Assembly: GCF_988243305.1 (NCBI RefSeq)
Contig: NZ_OZ547136.1
Direction: 5' to 3' (one strand)
DNA: 64,000 nucleotides
The notes beneath the pieces were generated by a model. The model searched no databases. It saw only the letters and a list, made by a program, of their open reading frames with translations, and was not told the DNA's origin. The stretch's first letter is position 1; the number at the start of each line of letters is the position of its first letter. Of the stretch, positions 31,593 to 49,101 are shown piece after piece. The position numbers were made by a program, and so were the translations under genes.

Positions 31593-32992
31593 GCGCTGGC
31601 CTCCGTGGGTGTTTCTGCTTTGGGGATGGGGGCGGTCCAGTTGCGTAGGTCGATTTTTCCGGTGACGGCAGCGGAGATAAGGGCGGTGCGGCGTTCCTGG
31701 ATTAGCATTATTGCTTGATTGGTTTTAAATATTATGAGATCAATTTGTGCGCATTTTTCATTCAAGGCGTTGACGATTGATTGTGCTTCACCCAATGGGG
31801 GAAATATAAACTTGGTTGTTTTAAAGTCACCTAATGAAACTCTTTTTCTTGTTCCCTCAATACTAATGTTATTAATGGTTTGTCGCCCAAAATTTGAGTT
31901 CAATAGATATGCTATGAAATGTGCATTGAAGGTTTTTTTATTAACTCTTACTCTCATAACATCTTGCGTTATGACAGCATCTGGTTCATTTTTAGGATAA
32001 ACGCACGCTTCTCCTGGGGGATCTCCGACTTTTGAAAAAATCACATCATTTGAGGATAATTTACATATTTCAAGCTGTTGGGCTTTTTGATGAGTAACAT
32101 ATACAGTACTTTTTCTGTTATAACCTGTCGCTTTTATATCTCGAATGTATACGACAGGTACCCCTTCTTCTTTCAATTCACTTGCTAGTAAATCACTTCC
32201 AAATGGCCCATTTACGAAGCATCCTTTAGTTTCATCACCAGTATTGGCTAATTTACTCTTAAACCAGTGGGAGGGTGCTTCGCCTAATCCTGTTAAACCA
32301 GAATCTTTCATCGGCACATCAGGATTTAGCCCTTTGGTCACCGCATGGCTAATCACTGCCTGACGTTTTTCTTTAAGTAGTTCAATGAGTTGTTGTTGTT
32401 TCTCGATCAGGTCATCGATTTTTGCTGTTTCATGATCAAGGAAAAGTGCAATCTTAGAAGATTCATCATTACGAGGTTTTGGGCATTGTATATCGCCTAA
32501 AAGTTCAAGGTTTAAACCGTCTCGTAAATCACCGCCAGCCATGTTACGTATATTCTGATAATTAGAAATGAGCCACCAAAATATATAGCGAGATTGATTC
32601 TTTTTATACAATACAATGGCCGCCATGGATTGGTTACAAGTGGTATTAATACCAAGTTGTGCAACCATACCTTTGGTTTTTCCCTGCCCAGCTAAAGCGA
32701 CAACAAGTGCCCCTTTTGGTATCCACTTGGCACTACTATTTTCAAGTGCAGCGTTAGATATATATGTGGATGGCTCGACTATATAACCTTGATTTACTGC
32801 TCCAGAACTAATCCAGGGAACTGTACCATTCTCCCAATAATCAATAACATTTTTGGAGGGAGTTCCTCCTGCAAAAATATTGGATAGCCACCTCAGCTTA
32901 GTTTTTTTCCAGTTTAGTGGTAATTCATTACACCACTCCATCCCAGAATCCCTATACTCCGGATACGCCTGATATTTATTTAACCCCGCCAT
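31589..32992 (-). CDS. hsdS: Type I restriction-modification specificity subunit, 467 aa, two target-recognition domains
   Basis: A 467-aa low-GC ORF with duplicated architecture, coupled to hsdM upstream and hsdR downstream. Confidence 0.8.
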   Translation of the reverse strand: MAGLNKYQAYPEYRDSGMEWCNELPLNWKKTKLRWLSNIFAGGTPSKNVIDYWENGTVPWISSGAVNQGYIVEPSTYISNAALENSSAKWIPKGALVVALAGQGKTKGMVAQLGINTTCNQSMAAIVLYKKNQSRYIFWWLISNYQNIRNMAGGDLRDGLNLELLGDIQCPKPRNDESSKIALFLDHETAKIDDLIEKQQQLIELLKEKRQAVISHAVTKGLNPDVPMKDSGLTGLGEAPSHWFKSKLANTGDETKGCFVNGPFGSDLLASELKEEGVPVVYIRDIKATGYNRKSTVYVTHQKAQQLEICKLSSNDVIFSKVGDPPGEACVYPKNEPDAVITQDVMRVRVNKKTFNAHFIAYLLNSNFGRQTINNISIEGTRKRVSLGDFKTTKFIFPPLGEAQSIVNALNEKCAQIDLIIFKTNQAIMLIQERRTALISAAVTGKIDLRNWTAPIPKAETPTEASA

Positions 32993-35346
32993 CAGGAATG
33001 TACCTCCTGCAACAGTTTCATAATCTCAGCGCTTACCGCATCCAAATCAGCATCAATCTCCTCCAACGGTCGCGGCGGTGTATAAACATAAAAATGACGA
33101 TTAAACGGAATTTCATACCCCACAATCCCGATATCCCCATCTTTCGCATCGCGTTTATCGGCATTGATCCACGCATCCGCAACATGCGGCAATACTTCCG
33201 CTTTGAAGTAATCCTCGATCAACTCGTTGGTAGATACCGCCGGATTTAACGGCACATTCTCGTTATCACGCAGGTCGCCATCCGATTCAAACTCCACAAC
33301 CTTTCCGTGGTACTCAAACGCGCCGTACAGCGGTTGGGGCGCTTCTTTCAGAACCTTGCTGATTACCGGCTCGGCGTCCGGGTTTTTGCGGGTGATAGCA
33401 TCGATAAACTGCTTGTTCTCTTTCGCATCCAGCTTCACGCCTGCGGTTCTGAGCGCCTCTTTCAGCGTCAACTGGAACTGATTAAAGTCATTGCTAACAG
33501 TCTCTTTGCCACCCGCCAGCATCCTCATCGCTGCCTGAATACGCCGCGCTTTTTCCATTAACCCGCGCTGGGCCAGCCATAATTTGCTGTCGAGCAGATC
33601 TTTAATTTGCTTCTCTTTCAGCTCGCTAAAATCGGCTTTAAGAATGGCGCGGGCTTCACTTTCTACCGCTGTTAAGTCGCCGTAATTACCGTCCTGCCAC
33701 TGGAAAGCAAAGGCGTCATACAGTTGCGCCATCGGCGCGTTAAACGGCTTCGGCGCAAAGCGCAATGTGGCAATGGCGTCATCACTTATCTGAGCCGACA
33801 GGCGTAACGGGCGCTCAACGGTGATGCGACGATAGCCAAACTCGGTGCTGTGAAAGACTTTGCTGGCAAAGGTTTTTGCCGCCTCGGTTTTGGTTGTTGC
33901 GGGCTGGCGTCCCCGGCTGGATTTTTGTTCGGGTGCTTTCTCCAGGCCTAACGCCGCAAGCGTAGTGGTGGCAACGGGTTCGAAATCGCCAAACGTGCGG
34001 GTGATTAAACCAATATCCTCCTCCCCGAGAATATTACGTTTTGATCCCAGCGATTTACGCATCTTTCCGCACAGGTTGCTGCCGTCGATTAGCTGGACTT
34101 TACCTTTGCGTTCTGGCGCTTTTTTGTTAGACAGCACCCAAACATAGGTAGCGATACCGGTGTTGTAAAACATATCGGTGGGCAGGGCGATAATGCCTTC
34201 CAGCAAATCCGCTTCCAGAATGTAGCGGCGGATCTCGCTTTCACCGCTGCCTGCGCCGCCGGTGAATAACGGCGAACCATTAAGAATGATGCCGATCCGT
34301 CCGCCACCGCTTTTGGCATCGCGCATTTTGCTGATCAGATGCAGCAGAAACAGCAACGAACCGTCGGAGACTCGGGGCAGGCCGGGGCCAAAGCGACCAT
34401 CAGCACCTTTGAGTTTGTGCTCGTTGTTGATGTCGGTTTCTATCTTTTTCCAGTCCACGCCGAAAGGTGGATTAGAGAGCATGTAATCGAATTTTTCTGC
34501 GGGGAGCTGATCGTTGGAAAGGGTGTTGCCGAGTTTGATAAGGCTGACATCCTGGCCCTTAATCAGCATGTCGGCTTTGCAGATGGCGTAGGATTCCGGG
34601 TTTAACTCCTGACCAAACGCGCGCATCACGGCATTGGGGTTTTGTTTGTGGACGTACTCCATGCCGGAGGAGAGAAAGCCGCCGGTTCCCGCCGTTGGGT
34701 CGTAAATGGTGCGAATGATACCGTCTTTATTGAGTGCATCATCATCATCGAAAAACACCAGCGAGGTGGTCAGATTGACGATATCACGCGGGGTAAAGTG
34801 CTCCCCGGCGGTTTCGTTAGAACTCTCGGCAAAACGTCGGATCAGCTCCTCAAATACCAGCCCCATATCGTGGTTGGTGACGTGCTCCGGGTATAAATCT
34901 GCTTTAGCGAATATTTGCACCACTTTGAACAGTAAGTTTGCATCCGCCAGCTGTCCGACAAACTCGCTGAACTTGAAGTGTTCGAAAATTTCGCGGGCAT
35001 CCGAAGAGAACGACTGGATGTAGTTTTCCAGGTTGTCCTGTATGCCATTTTGCCCCATTTTGCTGAGATCCATCGCTGAGGCATTGAAGAACGTGAGGCC
35101 ATTAGTCGCCCGCAGGATCATTTTCTCCTGGGCTTCCTCCGGCAGTTTCATGGCTTTTACTTTTTGCGCCTCGGTAATGACCGCGTCTTTCGTTGTTTCG
35201 AGTACGCATTCCAGACGACGCAAAAGGGTAAAAGGAAGAATAATTCGTCCATATTGTGATTGTTTAAAATCGCCGCGTAACAGGTCGGCGACAGACCACA
35301 GGAAGGCTGCAATCTGGCTGAAATTAGTTGATGACATAAAAAGCAT
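32992..35346 (-). CDS. hsdM: Type I restriction-modification N6-adenine DNA methyltransferase subunit, unusually long (784 aa)
   Basis: HsdM_N-like N-terminus (…[22 protein letters not shown]…). AdoMet motif [11 protein letters not shown]. Catalytic motif IV NPPFG. There are about 250 aa after the methyltransferase core. Confidence 0.85.
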
Positions 35347-35621
35347 TCCTTGCCCTGAAAAAGAGGGGGATATTCAATGTGAAGTGAATGCTTTGTTATA
35401 TCAAACTATTGCTGTGATGATCAAAAACACGATCATTTTCAATACGTTATAAATATGAATTGGAAATATTAATTGTTCTAATGAATGCGTGTTGAGGTGT
35501 TTCTTAATATATTTTGATTTATCCTGGAATGGTATTTTTGCAGAAACAAAGACGCTAACTTTTATTTTTTATTCGCAGCATAATGACGCCGTTTGCCAGT
35601 GCAATTTGACAGGAGTCATTC

Positions 35622-37721
35622 ATGAAAGCCACCGAAGCCCGATTACTCGATTTTCTAAAACGCTCTCAGCAATTCGTTATTCCCATTTATCAGCGTACTT
35701 ATTCATGGTCAGAGGAACAGTGCCGCCAGCTCTGGGACGATGTAATACGTGCCGGGCAGCGTGATGATATCCCGGCGCATTTTATCGGCTCGGTGGTGTA
35801 TATCGAACAGGGCCTATATCAGGTTTCGGGGATCTCTCCCTTACTGGTGATTGACGGTCAGCAACGCCTGACAACGGCGATGTTATTGCTGGAAGCGTTG
35901 TCCAGACACCTTGGCGATGACGAGGTGATGGATGGTTTCTCCGCCATGAAATTACGAAACTATTATCTGCTCAATCCGTATGAATCGGGCGAGCGTGGAT
36001 TTAAGTTACTGCTTACGCAAACGGACAGAGAGAGCCTGCTGGCATTGATTAGACAAAAACCGCTGGCAGAAAATTGCTCTCTACGCGTGAAAGAGAATTT
36101 TGAGTTTTTCCATGAGCAAATAGGCAAACTCCACGGCAATTTCACCGCGTTATGTCAGGGCCTTTCCAAACTGCTGATTGTGGATGTCGCCTTGAATCGC
36201 GGTCAGGATAATCCGCAACTAATCTTTGAAAGCATGAACTCAACAGGAAAAGCGCTGAGTCAGGCGGATCTAGTACGCAACTATGTTCTGATGGGGCTGG
36301 AGCCAGAACATCAAAGCCAACTGTACGACGATTACTGGCGGCCCATGGAGCTGGCGTTTGGTCAGAAGGGATACACTGACTATTTCGACAGTTTTATGCG
36401 TAATTACCTGACGGTAAAAACAGGTGAGATTCCGCGAATTGGTGATGTCTATGAAGCCTTTAAACGCTATGCGCGAAAACCTGGCGTAATAGATAGCGGG
36501 ATGGAGGCGCTGGTTGCGGATATTCGTACCTATGCGGATTATTTTTGTGCGATGGCGCTGGATAGCGAAAAAGACAAAATATTAAAGATGGCGTTTCAGG
36601 ATCTACGTGAGCTGAAAGTCGATGCCGCCTGGCCGTTCCTGTTGGTGCTTTATCACGACTATAAACAGGGAATTCTTTCTGCCGCGGATTTTTTAAGTGC
36701 CACGCGTTTAATTGAGTCGTATATCTTCCGGCGCGCAGTCTGTGCCATTCCCACTAACTCATTTACTAAAACCTTCGCCACGTTTTACAAAGTGCTGGAT
36801 AAAGAGCGTTATCTGGAGAGCATTGCGGCACATTTGCTGGAACTGCCTTCCTACCGTCGTTTCCCGGATGATGATGAATTTCAACGTGAACTGAAAACTC
36901 GCGACCTCTACAACTTCCGTAATCGCAGCTATTGGCTACGTAGATTTGAAAACCACGATCGTAAAGAACGGGCCTATGTTGACACTTATACGATTGAACA
37001 TATCATGCCGCAGAACCCTAATTTATCGGCGAAGTGGCGCGATGACCTTGGTCCGGAATGGAAGCGAATCCATAAAAAGTGGCTCCATACGTTGGGTAAT
37101 TTAACGTTAACTGGCTATAACTCAAGCTACAGCGACCGTCCATTTGCGAAGAAGCGAGATATAAAAGGTGGCTTTAAGGAAAGTCCATTACGCCTGAACA
37201 CGGGGTTAGGGCAATGTGAAATATGGGATCGTGCAGCGATACAAAAGAGAGCGGAACGTCTGTCCGAGCTGGCAATAGACGTCTGGGCGATCCCCAAACT
37301 TTCGGAAGACGTGTTGGCTCGTTATCGCACCGTCGTTGAACGAGGAACGGGATATGTCCTTGCTGATTTCCCGCAACTTGAAGAAGGTACGCACATCCGC
37401 GTACTTTTTGACAGCCTTTCTGATGCCGTTATGACGCTGGACGCTGGGGTTACGCGAGAAATATTGAAGCTCTATGTTGCCTTCAAAGCGGAGACGAATT
37501 TTGTTGATGTGGTGCCGCAAAAAAGTCGCTTACGTTTATCACTAAATATGCCATTCCATGAACTGGTTGACCCAAAATGTATGGCTAAAGATGTCACAGA
37601 TATAGGCCGTTGGGGCAATGGCGATGTTGAAATAGGTTTCAGCGATCTTTCTGAGCTTCCTTATGTGATGGGATTAATTCGTCAGGCATTTGAAAAGCAG
37701 ATGGATAACGCGATGGTTTAA
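35622..37721 (+). CDS. GmrSD-family (DUF262 ParB-like NTPase plus DUF1524 His-Me finger) putative type IV modification-dependent restriction endonuclease, 699 aa
   Basis: N-terminal DUF262 signatures (FVIPIYQRTYSWSEEQ… and IDGQQRLTT). C-terminal DUF1524 signature (…YTIEHIMPQNP…). Confidence 0.8.
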   Translation: MKATEARLLDFLKRSQQFVIPIYQRTYSWSEEQCRQLWDDVIRAGQRDDIPAHFIGSVVYIEQGLYQVSGISPLLVIDGQQRLTTAMLLLEALSRHLGDDEVMDGFSAMKLRNYYLLNPYESGERGFKLLLTQTDRESLLALIRQKPLAENCSLRVKENFEFFHEQIGKLHGNFTALCQGLSKLLIVDVALNRGQDNPQLIFESMNSTGKALSQADLVRNYVLMGLEPEHQSQLYDDYWRPMELAFGQKGYTDYFDSFMRNYLTVKTGEIPRIGDVYEAFKRYARKPGVIDSGMEALVADIRTYADYFCAMALDSEKDKILKMAFQDLRELKVDAAWPFLLVLYHDYKQGILSAADFLSATRLIESYIFRRAVCAIPTNSFTKTFATFYKVLDKERYLESIAAHLLELPSYRRFPDDDEFQRELKTRDLYNFRNRSYWLRRFENHDRKERAYVDTYTIEHIMPQNPNLSAKWRDDLGPEWKRIHKKWLHTLGNLTLTGYNSSYSDRPFAKKRDIKGGFKESPLRLNTGLGQCEIWDRAAIQKRAERLSELAIDVWAIPKLSEDVLARYRTVVERGTGYVLADFPQLEEGTHIRVLFDSLSDAVMTLDAGVTREILKLYVAFKAETNFVDVVPQKSRLRLSLNMPFHELVDPKCMAKDVTDIGRWGNGDVEIGFSDLSELPYVMGLIRQAFEKQMDNAMV

Positions 37722-37764
37722 TATGGAATAATATCCTCTTTACCATGCAATCAAGGATCCTCTA

Positions 37765-38499
37765 ATGACAACCAAACTACTGGACCTGAGCTGGAATGCA
37801 AATGCCATCCCGGCGATGCAAATTGTCGGTACGCGCGCGGCCTTGTTTACCTTCAAAACGCATATGGCAGGGTTTGTCTGGGATGCCGCGCAACTGGAAA
37901 ATAACCCCTATACCTTTGTTGAAGTTAAAACGCTGCTCGATGGCGTCACCGTTGGCGGGCATAAGGTCAGTGATACTGAGCAGGTGTTGAACCTGGCAGA
38001 TAGCGCAAAAAAACTGATTGAACTTGTGCAATCCGGGCGTTTCGATCTTGATAAGAAAACGTTCACGTTGCTTAACGGCATTATTGCGCGTAATGAGGCG
38101 CTGGAGTGGGGCGTTTTTCGCGGCGAAGGTGATGAGTTACATTACAATGCGCGCGTTCACCTCGGCGAGTTGGGCACCCATTTCCCACCAGCCACAGAAG
38201 CAGGTGCACCTGAACTGAATCGAATATTCGCCGCAGGTGTGGCACAAATAAAAGAGATGCCACCGTTCGAAGGGGCGCTGGCAATGTTTTTATTTGGTGC
38301 TTATTTTCAGTTTTTCTTTGATGGCAACAAGCGTACCAGTCGCCATATGATGAACGGCTGGTTAATGCGCCACGGTTACAATCCCATTAGTGTACCCGCA
38401 GCTCGTGCGCTGGAGTTCAACAGCAAAATGGTGCGCTTTTATCACAGCAAAGATGCCAGTGAAATGATGGCATTTTTGGTGGATTGCTATCAGGTTTGA
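37765..38499 (+). CDS. Fic/Doc (Fido)-fold protein with non-canonical active-site motif QxFxDGNKRxxR, 244 aa
   Basis: …AYFQFFFDGNKRTSRHMMNGWL… aligns to the Fic motif HxFx(D/E)GNGRxxR and the Doc motif HxFxDGNKR, but Gln sits at the catalytic His position. It lies 43 bp downstream of the GmrSD-like gene and has a good RBS (aaggatcc). Confidence 0.6.
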   Translation: MTTKLLDLSWNANAIPAMQIVGTRAALFTFKTHMAGFVWDAAQLENNPYTFVEVKTLLDGVTVGGHKVSDTEQVLNLADSAKKLIELVQSGRFDLDKKTFTLLNGIIARNEALEWGVFRGEGDELHYNARVHLGELGTHFPPATEAGAPELNRIFAAGVAQIKEMPPFEGALAMFLFGAYFQFFFDGNKRTSRHMMNGWLMRHGYNPISVPAARALEFNSKMVRFYHSKDASEMMAFLVDCYQV

Positions 38500-38637
38500 A
38501 TAAGTGCTGGATGGTGTCCCAATGCTGCCATCCAGCCCCTTCATATCAACTTCCCTATCTTTTCCTAAAACGTGATGCTATTTCCAACATTCGAATCATC
38601 AGTGCACGAAAAGCAGATCGTAAAGAGAGGAATCGCT

Positions 38638-38940
38638 ATGAGCATGGTTAAACATAAACGAGGGACCTCCTCTACACTCGATGTGCAGCATGAGGCCGAA
38701 TTGAAGGCGCTGGCGAATAAATTCGACGAAGAGATTGATTACAGCGATATCCCACCTTCCAGCGATGAGCAATGGTCTAACGCAGAACGCGGTAAGTTTT
38801 ATCGGCCATTGAAAACCCAGGCTTCGGTGCGTATTGATGCTGATGTGATGGAATGGCTGAAGCGACCTGGTAAAGGCTATCAAACTCGCCTGAACGCAAT
38901 TTTACGTGAAGCGATGCTGCGCGATCAGAACAAAAAATAA
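38638..38940 (+). CDS. BrnA-like (COG3514/DUF4415) antitoxin-type small DNA-binding protein, about 100 aa
   Basis: …IDYSDIPPSSDEQWSNAERGKFYRPLKTQASVRIDADVMEWLKRPGKGYQTRLNAILREAM… has the characteristic C-terminal GKGYQTR(I/L)NAILR signature of BrnA antitoxins. RBS aagagagg. I see no BrnT (DUF497) ORF adjacent. Confidence 0.65.
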   Translation: MSMVKHKRGTSSTLDVQHEAELKALANKFDEEIDYSDIPPSSDEQWSNAERGKFYRPLKTQASVRIDADVMEWLKRPGKGYQTRLNAILREAMLRDQNKK

Positions 38941-42736: not shown

Positions 42737-43249
42737 TTAAATCGCAGCTTCCATTTCCAGCATCACCGGATGGAAACGGCGTTTAAAGTAGATAAGTCCG
42801 TGACCTTCTGCACTGAGGATGATGTTTTTAATCTCCACCAGATACACCAGATGTGTGCCAATTGCCTGCACATCGCGGATCTCACCTTCAAGACTGGCCA
42901 GCGAACCTTTTAGCACCGGCTGCGCCAGCGGACCTTTTTGCCAGCATGAGAGGCTAAAACGCTCTTCCATCGCCATGCCTGTCATGCCCGCGAAGTGGCG
43001 TGCCATCAGTTCCTGCTCATGGTTGAGGACGTTGACGCACAACTTGCCGTTGCCCTGAAAAACCGGGTTCATCGCACTGTTGGCGTTAATGCACACCATC
43101 AGCGACGGTGGTGTATCCGTGACCGAGCAGACAGCCGTTGCCGTAATCCCGCATTGTCCGGCGTCGCCCTCGGTGGTGATAATATTTACCGCTGCCGACA
43201 GGCTGGCCATTGCGTCACGAAAGCGCAGGCGTTGTTCATCTAATTGCAT
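42737..43249 (-). CDS. hpaC: 4-hydroxyphenylacetate 3-monooxygenase reductase (flavin:NADH oxidoreductase) component, 170 aa
   Basis: A 170-aa flavin-reductase-like ORF downstream of hpaB. Confidence 0.85.
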   Translation of the reverse strand: MQLDEQRLRFRDAMASLSAAVNIITTEGDAGQCGITATAVCSVTDTPPSLMVCINANSAMNPVFQGNGKLCVNVLNHEQELMARHFAGMTGMAMEERFSLSCWQKGPLAQPVLKGSLASLEGEIRDVQAIGTHLVYLVEIKNIILSAEGHGLIYFKRRFHPVMLEMEAAI

Positions 43250-43266: not shown

Positions 43267-44829
43267 TTATTTCAGCAGCTTATCCAGCATGTTGATATCG
43301 TCGTTGTTGTGCAGGTGCGGCACAGTCCAGCCGTTCTGGTCGTATTCCGACAGGCAGCGATCAACCATCGCCATCATCTTGTCCATATTGCCGGAGCTTT
43401 GTGCCTGGCGCAGACACTGCAGGCGAATCTCATCCTGGCTACCGGAGTAGTTGATTTCATACAGTTCGTGACGACCACCAAATTCGCTGCCAATAGCATC
43501 CCACATCAGTTTGAGGATCTTGATGCGCTGGACGTGATCCATACCGTTCGAACCGCGCACATACTTCGCCAGATACTGGTCGATCTGCGGATTGTTCAGG
43601 TCACGGGCACTGGAAGGGAGATAGATCAGGCCACTGGTAACGTTGCGTTCGATAATGTTTTTGATCTTCGCGTAGGCCATTGGTGCCAGTACGCGATAGG
43701 TTTGCAGTGCGGCATGATCCGGTAAATAAGCCCCGTTGACCCACGGCGTCGCTTCTGAACACATCGAGTCACTCAATGCCCAGAAGGTGTTGCGCCACGC
43801 CACCACTTCACCGAGATCGGCCTGCACACCACGGAACTCCAGGGTGCCGGTACATTCGAGTGATTTTTTCAGCAGTGCCGTAATGAAGTCGAGTTTCACT
43901 GCCAGGCGCACACAGGCTTGCAGCGGATACATACGGGCGAAACCGCCTTCCATCGTCCAGCGACGGCAGCGATCAAAATCGCGGTAGATCAGCACGTTTT
44001 CCCATGGGATCAGCACGTTATCCATCACCAGAATCGCATCGTTCTCATCGAAGCGGCTGGAGAGCGGGTAGTCGTACGGCGAGCCGGTAGCACCCGCGAC
44101 CATCTCATAAGAGGCGCGGGAGATTAATTTCACGCCATCGGCATCCATTGGCGCAACGAACATCAGTGCGAAGTCCGGGTTTTCGCCCATCACTTGTGCC
44201 GAGCCGAAGCCAATCATGTTGTAGTGAGTCAGCGCCGAGTTGGTGGCAACCACTTTCGCACCGCTGACGATAATCCCGGCGTCAATCTCTTTTTCCAGCT
44301 TGATGTAAACGTCTTTCACTTTATCGGTCGGCAAATGACGATCAATCGGTGGGTTAACAATCGCGTGGTTAAAGTAGAGGCCAGTTTCCTGAATACGGGT
44401 GTACCAGTTACGGGCGTTCTGCTCGAACTGACCGTAAAAGCCCGGATTCGCGCCCAGTGCGCAACCGAAAGCAGCCTTGTAGTCTGGGGTACGGCCCATC
44501 CAGCCATAGCTCAGGCGTGACCACTCAGCGATGGCGTCGCGTTGCTGGCGCAGGTCGTCGGCACTTTTCGCCACGCGGAAGAATTTATGGGTATAGCCGC
44601 CGCTGCCGGTGTCGGTGTTCCAACACAGAGAGTCCTGCATCTCCGGTTTGTGCAGCGCGTCGTACAGTTGGGCAACAGACGCTGCCGCATTACGAAATGC
44701 CGGATGAGTGGTGACGTCTTTCACTCGCTCGCCATAGATATAGATCTCGCGACCATCCTGCAGGCTTTTCAGATACTCTTCCCCGGTGAACGGACGTTGG
44801 GTACTGGCGCGGAAATCTTCTGGTTTCAT
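43267..44829 (-). CDS. hpaB: 4-hydroxyphenylacetate 3-monooxygenase oxygenase component, 520 aa
   Basis: A 520-aa ORF of the TC-FDM family. Length matches HpaB. Confidence 0.9.
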   Translation of the reverse strand: MKPEDFRASTQRPFTGEEYLKSLQDGREIYIYGERVKDVTTHPAFRNAAASVAQLYDALHKPEMQDSLCWNTDTGSGGYTHKFFRVAKSADDLRQQRDAIAEWSRLSYGWMGRTPDYKAAFGCALGANPGFYGQFEQNARNWYTRIQETGLYFNHAIVNPPIDRHLPTDKVKDVYIKLEKEIDAGIIVSGAKVVATNSALTHYNMIGFGSAQVMGENPDFALMFVAPMDADGVKLISRASYEMVAGATGSPYDYPLSSRFDENDAILVMDNVLIPWENVLIYRDFDRCRRWTMEGGFARMYPLQACVRLAVKLDFITALLKKSLECTGTLEFRGVQADLGEVVAWRNTFWALSDSMCSEATPWVNGAYLPDHAALQTYRVLAPMAYAKIKNIIERNVTSGLIYLPSSARDLNNPQIDQYLAKYVRGSNGMDHVQRIKILKLMWDAIGSEFGGRHELYEINYSGSQDEIRLQCLRQAQSSGNMDKMMAMVDRCLSEYDQNGWTVPHLHNNDDINMLDKLLK

Positions 44830-45055
44830 GTCGACCTCTACAGTATTAATCGGAATACGATTGTTAATTTTGTGTGTTGTTTTTGTTATTCAATTGAATC
44901 GTTGAACGCGGTTGTCGGGAAGAGACGTTTCAGGCGAACGTTGGTACTTTTCGCCAGCAAGGTGGAGTTAAATAGTAAACTGCGATCGTGATCAACTTAC
45001 AGTAAGGCAAATCATAATATTCCCCGCTAACAAGGGCTAACGGGGACGGAATTGT

Positions 45056-45994
45056 TTATGGGGCGAATGGAATGGTAATCGTCATATTTTCATGACCAAC
45101 GACGATAGGGCCTGAATAGTTTTTCTGTGCTTCTTGCTTCCATGTTTCATCCGGAACGGTGATTGGTACCAGGTGGCTAAGGATGAGTTTTTTCACTTTT
45201 GCTTCATTGGCAATTTTGCCTACATCCTCAATAGTCGTATGGTGAGAAGCAATGGCTTTTGCCAGTGTTTTACCATTGCCAATACTGTCTGCCAGCTTAG
45301 CGACGGAGGGCTCATGTACGGCCTCATGCACAAGTATATCAGCGCCTTCTGAGAAAGTTGCCAGTGGGGGAAAGTACGAGGTATCTCCTGAGAAGACAAT
45401 TCGCTTGCCTTGTGTGTCGAAGCGATAAGCAAAAGCCTCACCGTCAGGGAAAGGAGAATGAGGAACCTTTAATGCAGTCACGGTCACGGTATCATCTTTA
45501 TAAACTACGCCTTCACCAACATCTTGAGCTGTAACGAGCTTGCGAGGATCGGGTTTTCCTTCTTCTTCCATACGCAGTGTGATGTCCCGATCGAAGACCT
45601 GCCAACTGGCAGCGGTCATGGCTCGGGTACCTGGCGGACCGAACACATGAATATTTTTGTCCTGCAGACCGCTAGCCCATGCATTCATTAAGACTGAGGG
45701 ATAGTCCAGAATATGATCACTGTGTAAATGGGTGAGTAAAATATTATCAATCTGGCGCAGTGGAATATTATTTTTTACCAGTTGTAAGCTGGCCCCGTAA
45801 CCAGCATCAATTAACCATGTTTTATTGCCAATAATAAGTGCCGTTGCCATCGGCAAACGGTCAGCTTTTAATAAAGAAGGGCCACCTTTCGTTCCAAGTA
45901 GTACAATTTTCATTTCTTGCAGTTCGGAGGCGTAGGTGAATGCCACTGGCGCAATCAGGCACGCCACAAATAGTGAGCGTAAAGATATTTTCAT
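45056..45994 (-). CDS. Secreted metallo-beta-lactamase-fold hydrolase (signal peptide plus HxHxDH), about 312 aa, between hpaA and hpaB
   Basis: The start is refined to MKISLRSLFVACLIAPVAFTYA (signal peptide). It carries the MBL zinc motif LTHLHSDHI. GC is lower than in the flanking hpa genes. Confidence 0.7.
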   Translation of the reverse strand: MKISLRSLFVACLIAPVAFTYASELQEMKIVLLGTKGGPSLLKADRLPMATALIIGNKTWLIDAGYGASLQLVKNNIPLRQIDNILLTHLHSDHILDYPSVLMNAWASGLQDKNIHVFGPPGTRAMTAASWQVFDRDITLRMEEEGKPDPRKLVTAQDVGEGVVYKDDTVTVTALKVPHSPFPDGEAFAYRFDTQGKRIVFSGDTSYFPPLATFSEGADILVHEAVHEPSVAKLADSIGNGKTLAKAIASHHTTIEDVGKIANEAKVKKLILSHLVPITVPDETWKQEAQKNYSGPIVVGHENMTITIPFAP

Positions 45995-46020
45995 GTCGAG
46001 TCTCTCAGGTTGATAAATGG

Positions 46021-46914
46021 TCAGCGACCACGGAATTGTGTTGGTGAGCAACCCATCATTCGGTTGAAAAAACGGGCGAAATAGGCGGGATCTTTGTAGC
46101 CAAGATCAAGGGCAATCTGGTTGATGCTTTGCTCGCTATAGAGCAGAAGCCGTCTGGCTTCCCGGCTCATTCGTTCGAAAATCAATCTCTTCGGCGATTG
46201 ATTGGCAAAACGTCGGCATAGCTCGGTAAGCCGTGATTCACTCATACCGAGCATTGCTGCATATTCAGGGACCATTAAATGTTGGCGATAATTTTCGTCA
46301 ATCAGCCGATTAAACTTCTGGAATAAACACATCTCGCCGCGCACGCTGCATGTTGAAATATCATTTGGTGGTGCTTCACGCAGTAGGATTGTAAAAATAC
46401 TTTGCGCCAGTGATTGCAATAGAATTTCCCGTCCTGGCTTATTTTGTTGAAACTCCAGGGATATTATCGGCCAATAATGATTTAATGCCGCCAGTGTATG
46501 TTCCATTCCCTCCAGCGACAGACAGATACCTTGTAGCATTGCGGCATCTCCACTACCAGGCCAGAGCTTTTCTACCAGGGGCCAAATTAACTCCTGACGT
46601 ACGGTCAGAACATGCCCGTCGCTATCAGGCTCAGTAAAGAAAGTATGTGGCACCGATGGTGGTGTTAGTACAAAAAGCGGTGCGCGCACAGAATAGAAGT
46701 GCTCATCCAGCTGTAAAGTAATGCGTCCAGTGACCAGATAATGGAGTTGAAAATATCTATCGTGCCAGTGAGGGCGCATATCGCGTCCAAAGAAATTCGC
46801 TAACCTGGCAAATGTTTCATAATGCACATCTTCACCAGCGTAGCGGGCATCATATTCCCGGACCAAATCAATATTTTCATAACCATGTTCAAAGATAGCT
46901 TCACTGGACATCAT
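46021..46914 (-). CDS. hpaA: AraC/XylS-family activator of hpaBC, 297 aa
   Basis: Cupin-like N-terminus plus a C-terminal AraC HTH (…SINQIALDLGYKDPAYFARFFNRMMGCSPTQFR…). Confidence 0.85.
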   Translation of the reverse strand: MMSSEAIFEHGYENIDLVREYDARYAGEDVHYETFARLANFFGRDMRPHWHDRYFQLHYLVTGRITLQLDEHFYSVRAPLFVLTPPSVPHTFFTEPDSDGHVLTVRQELIWPLVEKLWPGSGDAAMLQGICLSLEGMEHTLAALNHYWPIISLEFQQNKPGREILLQSLAQSIFTILLREAPPNDISTCSVRGEMCLFQKFNRLIDENYRQHLMVPEYAAMLGMSESRLTELCRRFANQSPKRLIFERMSREARRLLLYSEQSINQIALDLGYKDPAYFARFFNRMMGCSPTQFRGR

Positions 46915-46920
46915 GACTCC

Positions 46921-48288
46921 TTATTGCGGTTTTGGTGCGATAAGTTCAGATGAAAGAGAGTGTTCCCGACTCCCCATAGGAATTCGGGTCATGACTAACG
47001 CGCCCAGTACCAGTAATCCTGCTACAAACCACAAACCTGAGCTAAAACTGCCGGTTGCATCTTTCAAAATACCGATAAGTAATGGACTGACTGCTGAACC
47101 TACATTACCGACAGCATTGATGACAGCCATCGCAACGGCACGCGATTGCAAGCTTATTACTTGATCCGGTGTCGTCCAAAAGATAGCCATTGCGGTAAAT
47201 GATCCCATTGAGGCCATAATGATGCCGCTCAGTTGAATGAGGCTGTGATCAGTCGCAGAAGCGAGTAACCATCCGGCAGCGGCAAACAGGTAGGGAAGAA
47301 TCGTATGCTTTTTGCGTTCTTTAAGACGGTCGGAACGACGACTCCACCAGATCATGCCAAAAATTGTGCAGAATTGGGGGATGGCCGCCAGCAAACCAAT
47401 CATGATGTTGCTACTGCCAGTATTGAAACTCTGTAGGATTTGCGGCGTCCAGATATTAATCGCACTCAGAGTATTGGTCAGGCAAAAATAAGCAAGTGTA
47501 TATAGCATGATGGCTGGGGTCAGGACTTCACGTAAGGTTGAGCGTGGAACAGATGCATGGGCAAATGCACTCTCTTGTTCACGGAGAATCATCGTTTTTA
47601 AAGCCTGTTTTTCGTTTTCATCAAGCCAGGTCGCCTGGTCTGGTGTATCGTTGAGATAAAACCAGGTGACGACACCAAGAATGACCGATGGCAGACCTTC
47701 CAGCAAAAAGAGCCATTGCCAGCCTTTTAGATTCCACAGTCCATCCAAGGCCAGAATGTAGCCTGAAAGGATCGATCCCAGCATCATAGTGACTGGCATC
47801 GCTATCATAAATAAGGCATTGGCTCTGGCCCGATGATATGCCGGGAACCACCAGGTCAGATAAACCAAAATACCAGGTAAAAAACCCGCCTCAGCAATAC
47901 CAACCAGCATACGCAGTAGATAGAGTGTTTCGGGGCTTGTTGCAAACATTGTGCAGGTGGAAGCAACTCCCCAGACCACCATGATCCCAGCGATCCATCG
48001 ACGAGCGCCAATTTTCGCTAACATCATATTACTGGGGATCCCGCACATGACGTACGTGACATAAAAGAGTGTCGCGGCGAGGCCAAACATTGTGGACGTC
48101 AGGCCAAGATCCTTGCCCATTGTCAGTCCGGCAAATCCTATATTGATGCGATCAAGAAACGAAAAAACAAACAGAATAAAAAGAAAAATGATTAGGCGAC
48201 GAAATAATTTATTAATGACACGATGTTCAATTTCAACAGTTTTATTATCTTTATATTGCAGGGTAGAGGTCGTCATGATGCGCTCCAC
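46921..48288 (-). CDS. hpaX: 4-hydroxyphenylacetate permease (MFS), 455 aa
   Basis: A 12-transmembrane MFS transporter immediately upstream of hpaA, as in the E. coli W hpa cluster. Confidence 0.85.
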   Translation of the reverse strand: MERIMTTSTLQYKDNKTVEIEHRVINKLFRRLIIFLFILFVFSFLDRINIGFAGLTMGKDLGLTSTMFGLAATLFYVTYVMCGIPSNMMLAKIGARRWIAGIMVVWGVASTCTMFATSPETLYLLRMLVGIAEAGFLPGILVYLTWWFPAYHRARANALFMIAMPVTMMLGSILSGYILALDGLWNLKGWQWLFLLEGLPSVILGVVTWFYLNDTPDQATWLDENEKQALKTMILREQESAFAHASVPRSTLREVLTPAIMLYTLAYFCLTNTLSAINIWTPQILQSFNTGSSNIMIGLLAAIPQFCTIFGMIWWSRRSDRLKERKKHTILPYLFAAAGWLLASATDHSLIQLSGIIMASMGSFTAMAIFWTTPDQVISLQSRAVAMAVINAVGNVGSAVSPLLIGILKDATGSFSSGLWFVAGLLVLGALVMTRIPMGSREHSLSSELIAPKPQ

Positions 48289-48297
48289 ATCGTACGT

Positions 48298-49101
48298 TTA
48301 GTAGACAGAGTTGTTGTTTTGCTTCGCCATCGAAATAGAAGAACTATTACCAAACCGTGCTGCCAGCGCTTCGGCGGCGCGGGCGAGCAGGGTGGTGTCA
48401 ACGCCGACGGCGACAAATAGCGCGCCCAGTTCCAGGTAGTGTTTTGCCAGTTGCTCATTGGCGATCAGGATACCCGGCGCCTTACCCGCTTCGCGGATCT
48501 GCACGATCGCCTGCTCAATCGCGGCCTGCACTTCCGGGTGTTGCGGATTACCGGCATAACCCATATCGGCGCTCAGATCCGCCGGGCCGATAAACACGCC
48601 GTCGACGCCTTCCACGTCCAGAATCTGCGGTAAGTTCTTCATTGCCTCACGCGTTTCGATCTGCACCAGTACGCACATTTGATCGTTGGCTTTTTGCAGG
48701 TAATCCGGAATACGGTTCCAGCGCGAGGCGCGTGCCAGCGCACTGCCCACACCGCGAATACCGGCGGGGGGATAACGGGTGGCGCGTACCGCTTCACGGG
48801 CTTCGTCGGCGTTTTGTACCATCGGCACCAGTAAGGTTTGTGTGCCGACGTCCAGCAGTTGTTTGATTTGCACCGGATCGTTCCACGATGGGCGTATCAC
48901 CGGCTGGCTGGGGTAGGGCGCAATCGCCTGTAGCTGGGTGAGCACGGTTTGCACGTTATTCGGCGCGTGCTCACCGTCGATCAATAACCAGTCGAATCCT
49001 GCTCCGGCCAGTAACTCTGCGCTGTAGCTGCTACTCAGCCCCAGCCATAATCCGATCTGCGGGCGGCCTGCTTTCAGCGCCGCTTTAAAACTGTTTTCCA
49101 T
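48298..49101 (-). CDS. hpaI: 2,4-dihydroxyhept-2-ene-1,7-dioate aldolase, about 267 aa
   Basis: The start is refined to [21 protein letters not shown]… (HpcH/HpaI aldolase family). The longer ORF would overlap hpaH. Confidence 0.8.

Follow-up and report, generated by a model that had tools for sequence, protein, structure and literature searches.

The 64,000-nucleotide stretch of DNA considered here (referred to as the window; contig NZ_OZ547136.1 of NCBI RefSeq assembly GCF_988243305.1) contains an hpa gene cluster for the catabolism of 4-hydroxyphenylacetate (4-HPA), in which a gene coding for an exported metallo-beta-lactamase (MBL)-fold hydrolase is located between hpaA, encoding the AraC-type activator, and the 4-HPA 3-monooxygenase genes hpaB and hpaC. 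Comparison with other genomes indicates that this MBL gene is very probably a genuine hpa accessory gene, and that it belongs to a segment in which the adjacent hpaX and hpaA genes are themselves divergent. The full explanation that we propose, namely that the product is a two-metal hydrolase with the MBL fold, located in the periplasm and belonging to the ElaC/AtsA branch, and that its gene is a conserved accessory of clusters for hydroxyphenylacetate uptake and catabolism, is one that we hold with a little less than even confidence. For its chemistry we infer, more tentatively, a sulfatase, i.e. a periplasmic hydrolase of aryl sulfates (phenol-O-conjugates) that would feed the permease HpaX.

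The MBL gene is read on the minus strand from an ATG at 45994 to a TAA at 45058-45056, and is separated from the hpaA stop codon (46021) by 26 nt; a GAGAGA run resembling a Shine-Dalgarno sequence is present upstream of the ATG at 46001-46006. The product matches the Pfam domains Lactamase_B_2 (PF12706; E=3e-20, 73 bits with a gathering cut-off of 27) and Lactamase_B (PF00753; E=6e-12, 46.4 bits with a cut-off of 22.7), both above the respective cut-offs, and its RefSeq entry is WP_001305623.1. An AlphaFold (AF2) model has a mean predicted local distance difference test (pLDDT) score of 91 and a predicted template modeling (pTM) score of 0.88; residues 1-20 have low pLDDT, the fold begins at residue 28, and the top fold matches are all MBL-fold proteins. 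In an alignment of 32 homologues, the motif residues H89, H91, D93 and H94 and the further ligand candidates H179, D204, H252 and H274 are invariant or nearly so.

The N-terminus, MKISLRSLFVACLIAPVAFTYA followed by SE, has the n-, h- and c-region layout that is typical of a Sec signal, with a predicted cleavage site after residue 22. A hydrophobic leader is present in every full-length member of the 32-homologue alignment, and many alpha- and beta-proteobacterial members have twin-arginine (Tat) leaders (e.g. MLDRRTLLAG). Because all full-length homologues carry either Sec or Tat leaders, export is a family trait, and the protein is probably located in the periplasm. A lipoprotein signal was considered, as there is a cysteine (Cys12) following FVA, but the h-region preceding Cys12 is too short and the cysteine is not conserved among the homologues; the leader is treated here, from its layout, as a predicted Sec signal cleaved by signal peptidase I. 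The open reading frame, the Pfam matches, the AF2 model and the leader all agree with the description given in an earlier note on this DNA, which had placed an exported MBL-fold protein with the motif HLHSDH in the hpaA-hpaBC interval, and the gene is co-oriented with hpaA, hpaB and hpaC, all on the minus strand, as that note had also stated. An 11-mer, TCGACATGAAA, spans the MBL start codon (45984-45998) and also that of hpaB (44819-44833), which may be due to chance.

There are several lines of evidence for an association with hpa genes. First, homologues recur next to hpa genes in clusters of different layouts, on the same strand and with gaps of 26-104 bp. In Salmonella enterica (subspecies arizonae, diarizonae and enterica) the order is hpaGEDFHI-hpaX-hpaA-MBL, followed by cbpM/cbpA and scsABCD, and the 90% cluster that holds the Salmonella protein has 1719 members. 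In Alcanivorax the MBL gene directly follows hpaI (hpaG1G2EDFHI-MBL; 53-57% identity), and Pseudomonas putida has a similar layout with an added gene for a major facilitator superfamily (MFS) transporter, the MBL gene again following hpaI (53-57% identity). A second Pseudomonas layout, seen in one genome and in a compost contig, consists of an HpaA-like AraC gene, OprD, the tripartite ATP-independent periplasmic (TRAP) transporter genes DctPQM, an MFS gene and, last, the MBL gene, and this set adjoins hpaG. The Cobetia homologue (47%) is preceded by hpaE, hpaF, a flavin adenine dinucleotide (FAD) monooxygenase gene and a TRAP transporter. Co-oriented hpa adjacency is thus seen in E. coli, Salmonella, Alcanivorax and Cobetia and in two Pseudomonas layouts. 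A genome-contig scan with the single protein yielded three loci, and in a metagenome scan most matches, mostly from soil, belong to a clade with 40-47% identity.

Second, the genes found at more distant loci are also related to hydroxyphenyl compounds. In Acinetobacter (47%) the MBL gene comes first and is followed by genes for a glucose-methanol-choline (GMC) oxidoreductase, an aldehyde dehydrogenase, a LuxR protein and a copper amine oxidase, a run with the appearance of a putative set of the tyramine- or tyrosol-to-4-HPA type. In Achromobacter (41%) the order is S1 sulfatase, flavin mononucleotide (FMN) dehydrogenase, TctC, MBL, and a gene similar to 4-hydroxyphenylpyruvate dioxygenase (HPPD). 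Third, the rate of nonsynonymous substitution (dN) between E. coli and S. arizonae is 0.16 for the MBL gene, the values for hpaA and hpaX being 0.34 and 0.24, respectively (synonymous changes, dS, are saturated), and this lower dN shows the MBL protein to be under stronger purifying constraint than either HpaA or HpaX.

Other arrangements are seen among the homologous loci. In 27 metagenome loci, homologues with 43-46% identity are convergent with a flavin amine oxidase gene (PF01593) whose product has a Tat signal (e.g. L055 5191-8352 and L071 9758-12300). Together with the copper amine oxidase at L009, the MBL family is thus paired with amine oxidases of the periplasm in two independent cases. 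Two Salmonella Logan contigs (L094 8001-9260 and L095 1412-2671) carry a 419-residue in-frame fusion of the hpaE N-terminus (Aldedh) with the MBL protein, left by a deletion that took hpaE through hpaA and preserved the MBL reading frame. In a Salmonella-like contig (L092 100-7700), a Mu-like prophage with MuA, MuB, Gam and Kil genes is directly 5′ of the MBL gene, in the usual place of the hpa genes. One locus has two tandem MBL paralogues (L059 1714-3570), and another has a second, distant copy (31% identity) approximately 9 kb away (L076 6642 and 15984).

In the window, the MBL gene is not alone in departing from its surroundings. Its lower GC content, on which the earlier note had remarked, is confirmed (45.9%, compared with 54.8% for hpaB and 58.5% for hpaI), but a point missed there is that low GC and divergence are common to hpaX and hpaA as well: both are 46.5% GC, whereas the flanking hpa genes are about 54-58% and the hpaA and hpaX genes of E. 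coli C are 53-54%. BLASTN comparison of the window with E. coli C shows 98% identity up to position 44952 and 96% identity from 48349, with only 67-69% identity between these positions, where hpaX and hpaA are the only parts that align at the nucleotide level. The corresponding E. coli C segment is 2,614 bp of hpaX-hpaA (L002 12254-14867), and the left junction of the block falls within the 3′ end of hpaI. At the amino acid level HpaA and HpaX are 57.7% and 69.5% identical to their E. coli C counterparts, compared with 99.8% for HpaB, 100% for HpaC and a value within 99.8-100% for HpaH. A simple insertion of the MBL gene is ruled out by the low nucleotide identity of its two neighbors, and no insertion-sequence or target-duplication signs are present; because hpaX and hpaA themselves are divergent from E. 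coli C, the whole segment has been replaced. This E. coli lineage would thus have gained the MBL gene by homologous replacement of its hpaX-hpaA with a foreign hpaX-hpaA-MBL block.

In other respects the cluster is that of E. coli W and C (hpaR, hpaGEDFHI, hpaXA, hpaBC), with the same flanking genes, gene order and chromosomal site (tsr ... btsT), and with hpaBC 98% and hpaG to hpaI approximately 96% identical in nucleotide sequence; it differs in the divergent hpaX (70% amino acid identity) and hpaA (58%) and in the added exported hydrolase gene. It also differs in the hpaI-hpaX spacer, which is 21 nt (48277-48297) in the window and 174 nt with palindromes similar to repetitive extragenic palindromic (REP) elements in E. 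coli C (L002 14658-14831). With a gap of just 21 nt, read-through of hpaX-hpaA-MBL from the hpaG-to-hpaI operon is possible.

A survey of 5426 complete E. coli genomes, 2071 of which have hpaB, shows that the block is rare. The canonical hpaA-hpaB junction is present in 2023 of the 2071 hpa-positive genomes and the MBL gene in the other 48 (about 1% of E. coli genomes), although several of these 48 are re-sequenced clones. The divergent hpaX-hpaA alleles are present in exactly 48 genomes, and since these are the same ones that carry the MBL gene, the three genes travel together. The order that the earlier note had described for the E. coli W cluster, with hpaA followed directly by hpaB, is seen in E. 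coli C, and strains W, B and C are not among the 48. The note had stated that its observation would be refuted by the presence of the gene between hpaA and hpaB in reference hpa clusters, and this applies in a modified form only: neither E. coli C nor 2023 other E. coli hpa clusters have the gene, but it is the standard last gene after hpaA in Salmonella enterica.

The block is also found in Shigella flexneri. In one such genome (CP182556.1; L004) the hpaX-hpaA-MBL segment is 99% identical to that in the window, and the flanking hpaG-to-hpaI, hpaBC and btsT genes (L004 1-5700 and 9100-13000) appear only as fragmented tblastn matches of 33-60%; these flanking genes are either decayed or part of an error-rich assembly. 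The MBL protein is annotated in S. flexneri records as a 255-residue or partial product.

The divergent HpaA is only 58-60% identical to the E. coli/Salmonella/Klebsiella type, and is closer to the HpaA proteins of Pluralibacter gergoviae (80%), Entomohabitans (77%), Mixta (74%) and Pantoea (approximately 72%), and the source of the block is therefore a different lineage of Enterobacterales. For the MBL protein, identity to the Salmonella homologues is 76-81%, its closest listed matches (84-85%) are on short Logan contigs, and no homologue from Pluralibacter, Entomohabitans, Mixta or Pantoea-like genera is present among the 120 best matches listed. The block may be a mosaic, or its donor may belong to an unsampled lineage. 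As in the window, the Salmonella cluster closes with hpaX-hpaA-MBL, although the HpaA and HpaX that it encodes belong to the usual E. coli type, with 87% identity to E. coli C (measured for HpaA in S. arizonae) and 59-70% identity to the proteins of the window. It differs further in that hpaC-hpaB-hpaR are on one strand and diverge from hpaG and the genes that follow it (L094 3689-8004), which puts hpaBC beside hpaR at the opposite end, and in the genes beyond MBL (cbpM/cbpA and scsABCD).

The earlier note had offered two explanations for the gene, one of which was an insertion separating hpaBC from the promoter on which HpaA acts. The MBL gene does sit between hpaA and hpaB, but the 123 bp upstream of hpaB are kept and lie downstream of the MBL gene and of a hairpin that resembles a terminator, with approximately 72 nt next to the hpaB ATG identical to E. 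coli C. At 44917-44952 (extending to -123) there is a conserved block, GAAAAGTACC-N11-(A/G)AA(A/C)GTCTCTTC, that is common to the window, E. coli C and the region upstream of Salmonella hpaB; the form in the window is GAAAAGTACC..N11..GAAACGTCTCTTCCC, and the block includes two AAA(A/C)GT repeats approximately 21-22 bp apart. Repeat spacing of this kind is what one would expect of an AraC/XylS-type operator that overlaps the -35 region, and the block is a candidate HpaA operator or promoter. Farther upstream, the window (TTGATCACGATCGCAGTTTACT) is closer to Salmonella than to E. coli C. The point of recombination coincides exactly with the border of the regulatory region of hpaBC. Because Salmonella hpaB is not next to hpaA, adjacency to hpaA is not needed for control of hpaBC, which can be exerted in trans, and hpaBC in the window would keep its own promoter region, putatively responsive to HpaA. 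Given also the lack of insertion signs and the replacement of hpaX-hpaA along with the added gene, an uncoupling of hpaBC from HpaA by insertion is extremely improbable.

A consensus scan of positions 44700-46200 gave no promoter call on the minus strand and found no terminator between hpaA and the MBL gene. Co-transcription of the MBL gene with hpaX-hpaA is probable, and the transcript may also include the entire hpaG-to-hpaI operon. The hairpin begins 10 nt past the MBL stop codon (centroid -17.7 kcal/mol; z=-2.3 for a 111-nt region); it was not flagged by the consensus scan because its T-run is weak.

As to the activity of the MBL protein, the relative in the PDB with the best single-sequence match is the arylsulfatase 8gyg of Pseudoalteromonas atlantica (E=1e-25, 94 bits), with RNase Z at 75 bits. 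When a family profile is used the alignment with 8gyg is full length (E=1e-53, 185 bits), and RNase Z and PNGM-1 score approximately 102 bits. Foldseek likewise ranks 8gyg first (template modeling [TM] score 0.82-0.85), and the metal ligands are all in common with it. AtsA-type enzymes constitute family S4 of SulfAtlas, a small clade beside RNase Z for which aryl-sulfate hydrolysis is the only activity known (PMC5066984, PMC9825549), and the HxHxDH pattern by which S4 arylsulfohydrolases are recognized (PMC5066984) is present as HLHSDH at residues 89-94. The resemblance to S4 enzymes (AtsA of Pseudoalteromonas carrageenovora and 8gyg) extends to the length of approximately 300 residues, the export signal, the single-domain ElaC-like MBL fold, and the conservation of downstream His, Asp and His ligands; the hpa-linked family differs in being tied to hydroxyphenylacetate genes, and its sulfatase activity is only predicted.

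RNase Z, ElaC and ZiPD belong to the same branch of the superfamily and share with the MBL protein the metal ligands, an N-terminal GTxGGP-type motif and significant matches, but these are cytoplasmic proteins of tRNA processing, whereas the MBL protein is exported and found in an aromatic-catabolism context. A role in tRNA processing is excluded, since the protein is exported and leaders are present family-wide. The RNase Z/RNase BN models of NCBIfam were rejected, with scores of less than half the cut-offs for TIGR02651 (125.7 against 292.95) and TIGR02649 (49.7 against 563.7) and a score of 127.3 against 252 for NF000801; so were GntH (128.9 against 333), cyc_nuc_deg_phdiest (84.1 against 400), Pfam Apyc1 (19.2 against 50) and PhnP, for which the score is far under the curated cut-off.

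The proposed function draws on the genomic contexts as well as on this kinship. Three kinds of compound are represented in these contexts: HPA, which is an acid; the amine tyramine; and a keto or hydroxy acid, to which the HPPD-like and FMN dehydrogenase genes point. Because what they have in common is the 4-hydroxyphenyl ring and not the side chain, chemistry at the phenolic oxygen is indicated. The shared ring, the sulfatase kinship and the position next to transporter genes together lead to our working model of a periplasmic aryl-sulfate hydrolase. The enzyme would cleave a substituent from the phenolic oxygen of 4-hydroxyphenyl-C2 compounds in the periplasm, the substituent most likely being a sulfate ester, as in 4-HPA-4-O-sulfate or the sulfates of 3-hydroxyphenylacetate (3-HPA) or 3,4-dihydroxyphenylacetate (DOPAC). 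The freed HPA or homoprotocatechuate (HPC) would be imported by HpaX (by TRAP or MFS transporters in other genera) and would induce HpaA. Compounds of this type occur naturally: 4-(sulfooxy)phenylacetic acid is present in a marine green alga (PMC6278426), and sulfated 3-HPA, 4-HPA and dihydroxyphenylacetate (DHPA) are phase-II conjugates of phenolic acids (PMC9736156). It is conceivable, though in our view less likely than not, that the protein and its relatives with at least 47% identity represent a new subfamily of periplasmic MBL-fold arylsulfatases that unmask sulfated hydroxyphenyl acids and amines. The second explanation of the earlier note, an unrecognized periplasmic accessory activity of the 4-HPA pathway, is supported with regard to the pathway, the context being conserved in several unrelated cluster layouts, but the aromatic carboxyl-ester or lactone hydrolysis that it named is disfavored, as the nearest characterized relatives cleave sulfate or phosphate esters.

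A number of observations weigh against a sulfatase dedicated to hydroxyphenyl compounds. Identity to 8gyg is just 28.7% over 268 aligned residues (HMMER) or 24% by structural alignment, where the S4 definition calls for at least 30% identity with AtsA (P28607), a different reference from the one measured here. The family-invariant residues K36, Y66, D137, R141 and E145 are not found in 8gyg, which also does not have the DIxxRxxDEGKPD segment of the hpa-linked family; specificity may thus differ from that of 8gyg, and these unshared residues and the 24-29% identity make membership of S4 borderline. Other characterized members of the ElaC/AtsA branch are mostly phosphodiesterases. The Achromobacter cluster already holds an S1 sulfatase, so that a second sulfatase could be redundant there. 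Because 2023 E. coli hpa clusters are without the MBL gene it is dispensable for growth on free 4-HPA, and the classical 4-HPA degraders W and C are not carriers. No hpa genes were found beside members of the 40-47% metagenome clade in the flanks searched, many of which are just a few kb; 27 loci of this clade adjoin a flavin amine oxidase gene, and pheS/pheT is upstream in about as many. Three of the 11 contexts at 47% identity or above are uninformative. Finally, our literature searches found no biochemical or expression data on any family member.

Of the other activities that could be imagined, the one closest in sequence and fold is that of a periplasmic aryl-phosphoesterase or phosphodiesterase, similar to ElaC/ZiPD and acting on phosphorylated phenolics or other phosphodiesters, in which case the link with HPA would be a phospho-conjugate. 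The metal ligands are the same in kind, and the next-best sequence and fold matches (RNase Z, ZiPD, YhfI, PhnP-family diphosphatase and Apyc1) are all phosphodiesterases. With the family profile, however, 8gyg scores approximately 80 bits above every one of them in a full-length alignment, the RNase Z models of NCBIfam are all far below their cut-offs, and aryl phosphates are far less common in nature than aryl sulfates; we consider this activity unlikely. A periplasmic carboxyl-ester or lactone hydrolase acting on hydroxyphenylacetate esters or lactones (methyl or ethyl HPA, or tyrosol esters) would fit the place beside HPA transporters equally well, since HPA would be released from the ester, and MBL-fold lactonases and thioesterases do exist. 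Against it, the contexts have in common the phenol ring and not a carboxyl side chain (as with the tyramine oxidase and the HPPD-like gene), and the neighbors by sequence or by fold include neither a lactonase nor an esterase family, so that we regard it as distinctly improbable.

The gene could also be a passenger without a role in HPA metabolism, such as a periplasmic nuclease or a weak PNGM-1-like beta-lactamase, that travels at the ends of hpa clusters. It is indeed located at cluster edges, some homologues have unrelated neighbors, most E. coli are without it, and the match to PNGM-1, a B3-type MBL with tRNase Z activity, is significant (102 bits). A passenger would hardly be expected, though, in at least five cluster layouts from Enterobacterales, Oceanospirillales, Pseudomonadales and Moraxellaceae, always co-oriented and with short gaps, nor to be more conserved than HpaA and HpaX, and we give this possibility little credence.

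The gene itself is not new, as RefSeq labels its product 'MBL fold metallo-hydrolase' and thousands of Salmonella genomes carry it; nor is this a new kind of system, but an uncharacterized protein of a known enzyme kind, in a variant layout of a well-known cluster. Our literature searches turned up no publication that connects an MBL protein with hpa genes, and none for PDB 8gyg; one proteomics table lists 'STM1109, putative periplasmic protein', which may or may not correspond to the MBL gene. The hpa genes constitute a textbook pathway of aromatic catabolism and, by way of HpaBC and the HpaA/PBC biosensors, a mainstay of metabolic engineering, and an exported hydrolase that travels with hpa across genera suggests that the natural substrates arrive as conjugates and not as free 4-HPA. 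If the protein is an aryl sulfatase, the hpa pathway would have an upstream deconjugation step in Salmonella, in some E. coli and Shigella, and in Pseudomonas, Alcanivorax and Cobetia. Its substrates would be phase-II conjugates of the host for bacteria in the gut, and sulfated phenolic acids made by algae or plants for those of the sea and soil. The excretion of sulfoconjugates by the host, and the sulfated phenolics of algae, would then be tied to bacterial carbon acquisition, and the orphan and poorly understood family of MBL-type (S4) sulfatases would have a physiological role and its first physiological substrate. The presence in E. coli of two deeply divergent hpaX-hpaA alleles (58% amino acid identity for HpaA and 70% for HpaX) also matters for users of HpaA/PBC parts from strains other than W.

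Table 1. Positions of the MBL gene, its neighbors and associated sequence features in the window.
Feature	Position	Strand	Basis or remarks
Exported MBL-fold (ElaC/AtsA-type) metallo-hydrolase coding sequence	45056-45994	-	312 residues plus stop; open reading frame, Pfam, AF2
Predicted signal peptide, residues 1-22, MKISLRSLFVACLIAPVAFTYA; predicted cleavage before SELQEM	45929-45994	-	Read from sequence
HxHxDH metal-binding motif, HLHSDH (H89 L H91 S D93 H94)	45713-45730	-	32-homologue alignment
Divergent replacement block hpaX-hpaA-MBL, 3,396 bp	44953-48348	-	BLASTN comparison with E. coli C; GC content
hpaI	48298-49101	-	
hpaX, divergent 4-HPA permease allele	46921-48276	-	Genome annotation; starts 21 nt past the hpaI stop
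hpaA, divergent AraC-type activator allele	46021-46914	-	NCBIfam TIGR02297 HpaA, 490 bits (cut-off 275)
Terminator-like hairpin, 11-bp stem, 4-nt loop, AU-rich tail AAUAUUAUGAUUUG	45021-45046	-	RNA folding
Retained hpaB-proximal regulatory region, presumed PBC	44830-44952	-	Identical or near-identical to E. coli C
hpaB, 4-HPA 3-monooxygenase gene	43267-44829	-	NCBIfam HpaB-2, 1108 bits; ordinary E. coli type
hpaC, 4-HPA 3-monooxygenase gene	42737-43249	-	NCBIfam HpaC, 386 bits; ordinary E. coli type

The positions of the features discussed are listed in Table 1. Beyond hpaC are btsT, yjiX and yjiA, and near yjiA (approximately 32700-38933) the window contains genes for the toxin-antitoxin pair BrnT/BrnA, for a restriction endonuclease and for a type I system (hsdR/S/M). 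The genes at this yjiA-side site are different in E. coli C, namely a DUF262 gene and a truncated gene for a type I enzyme.

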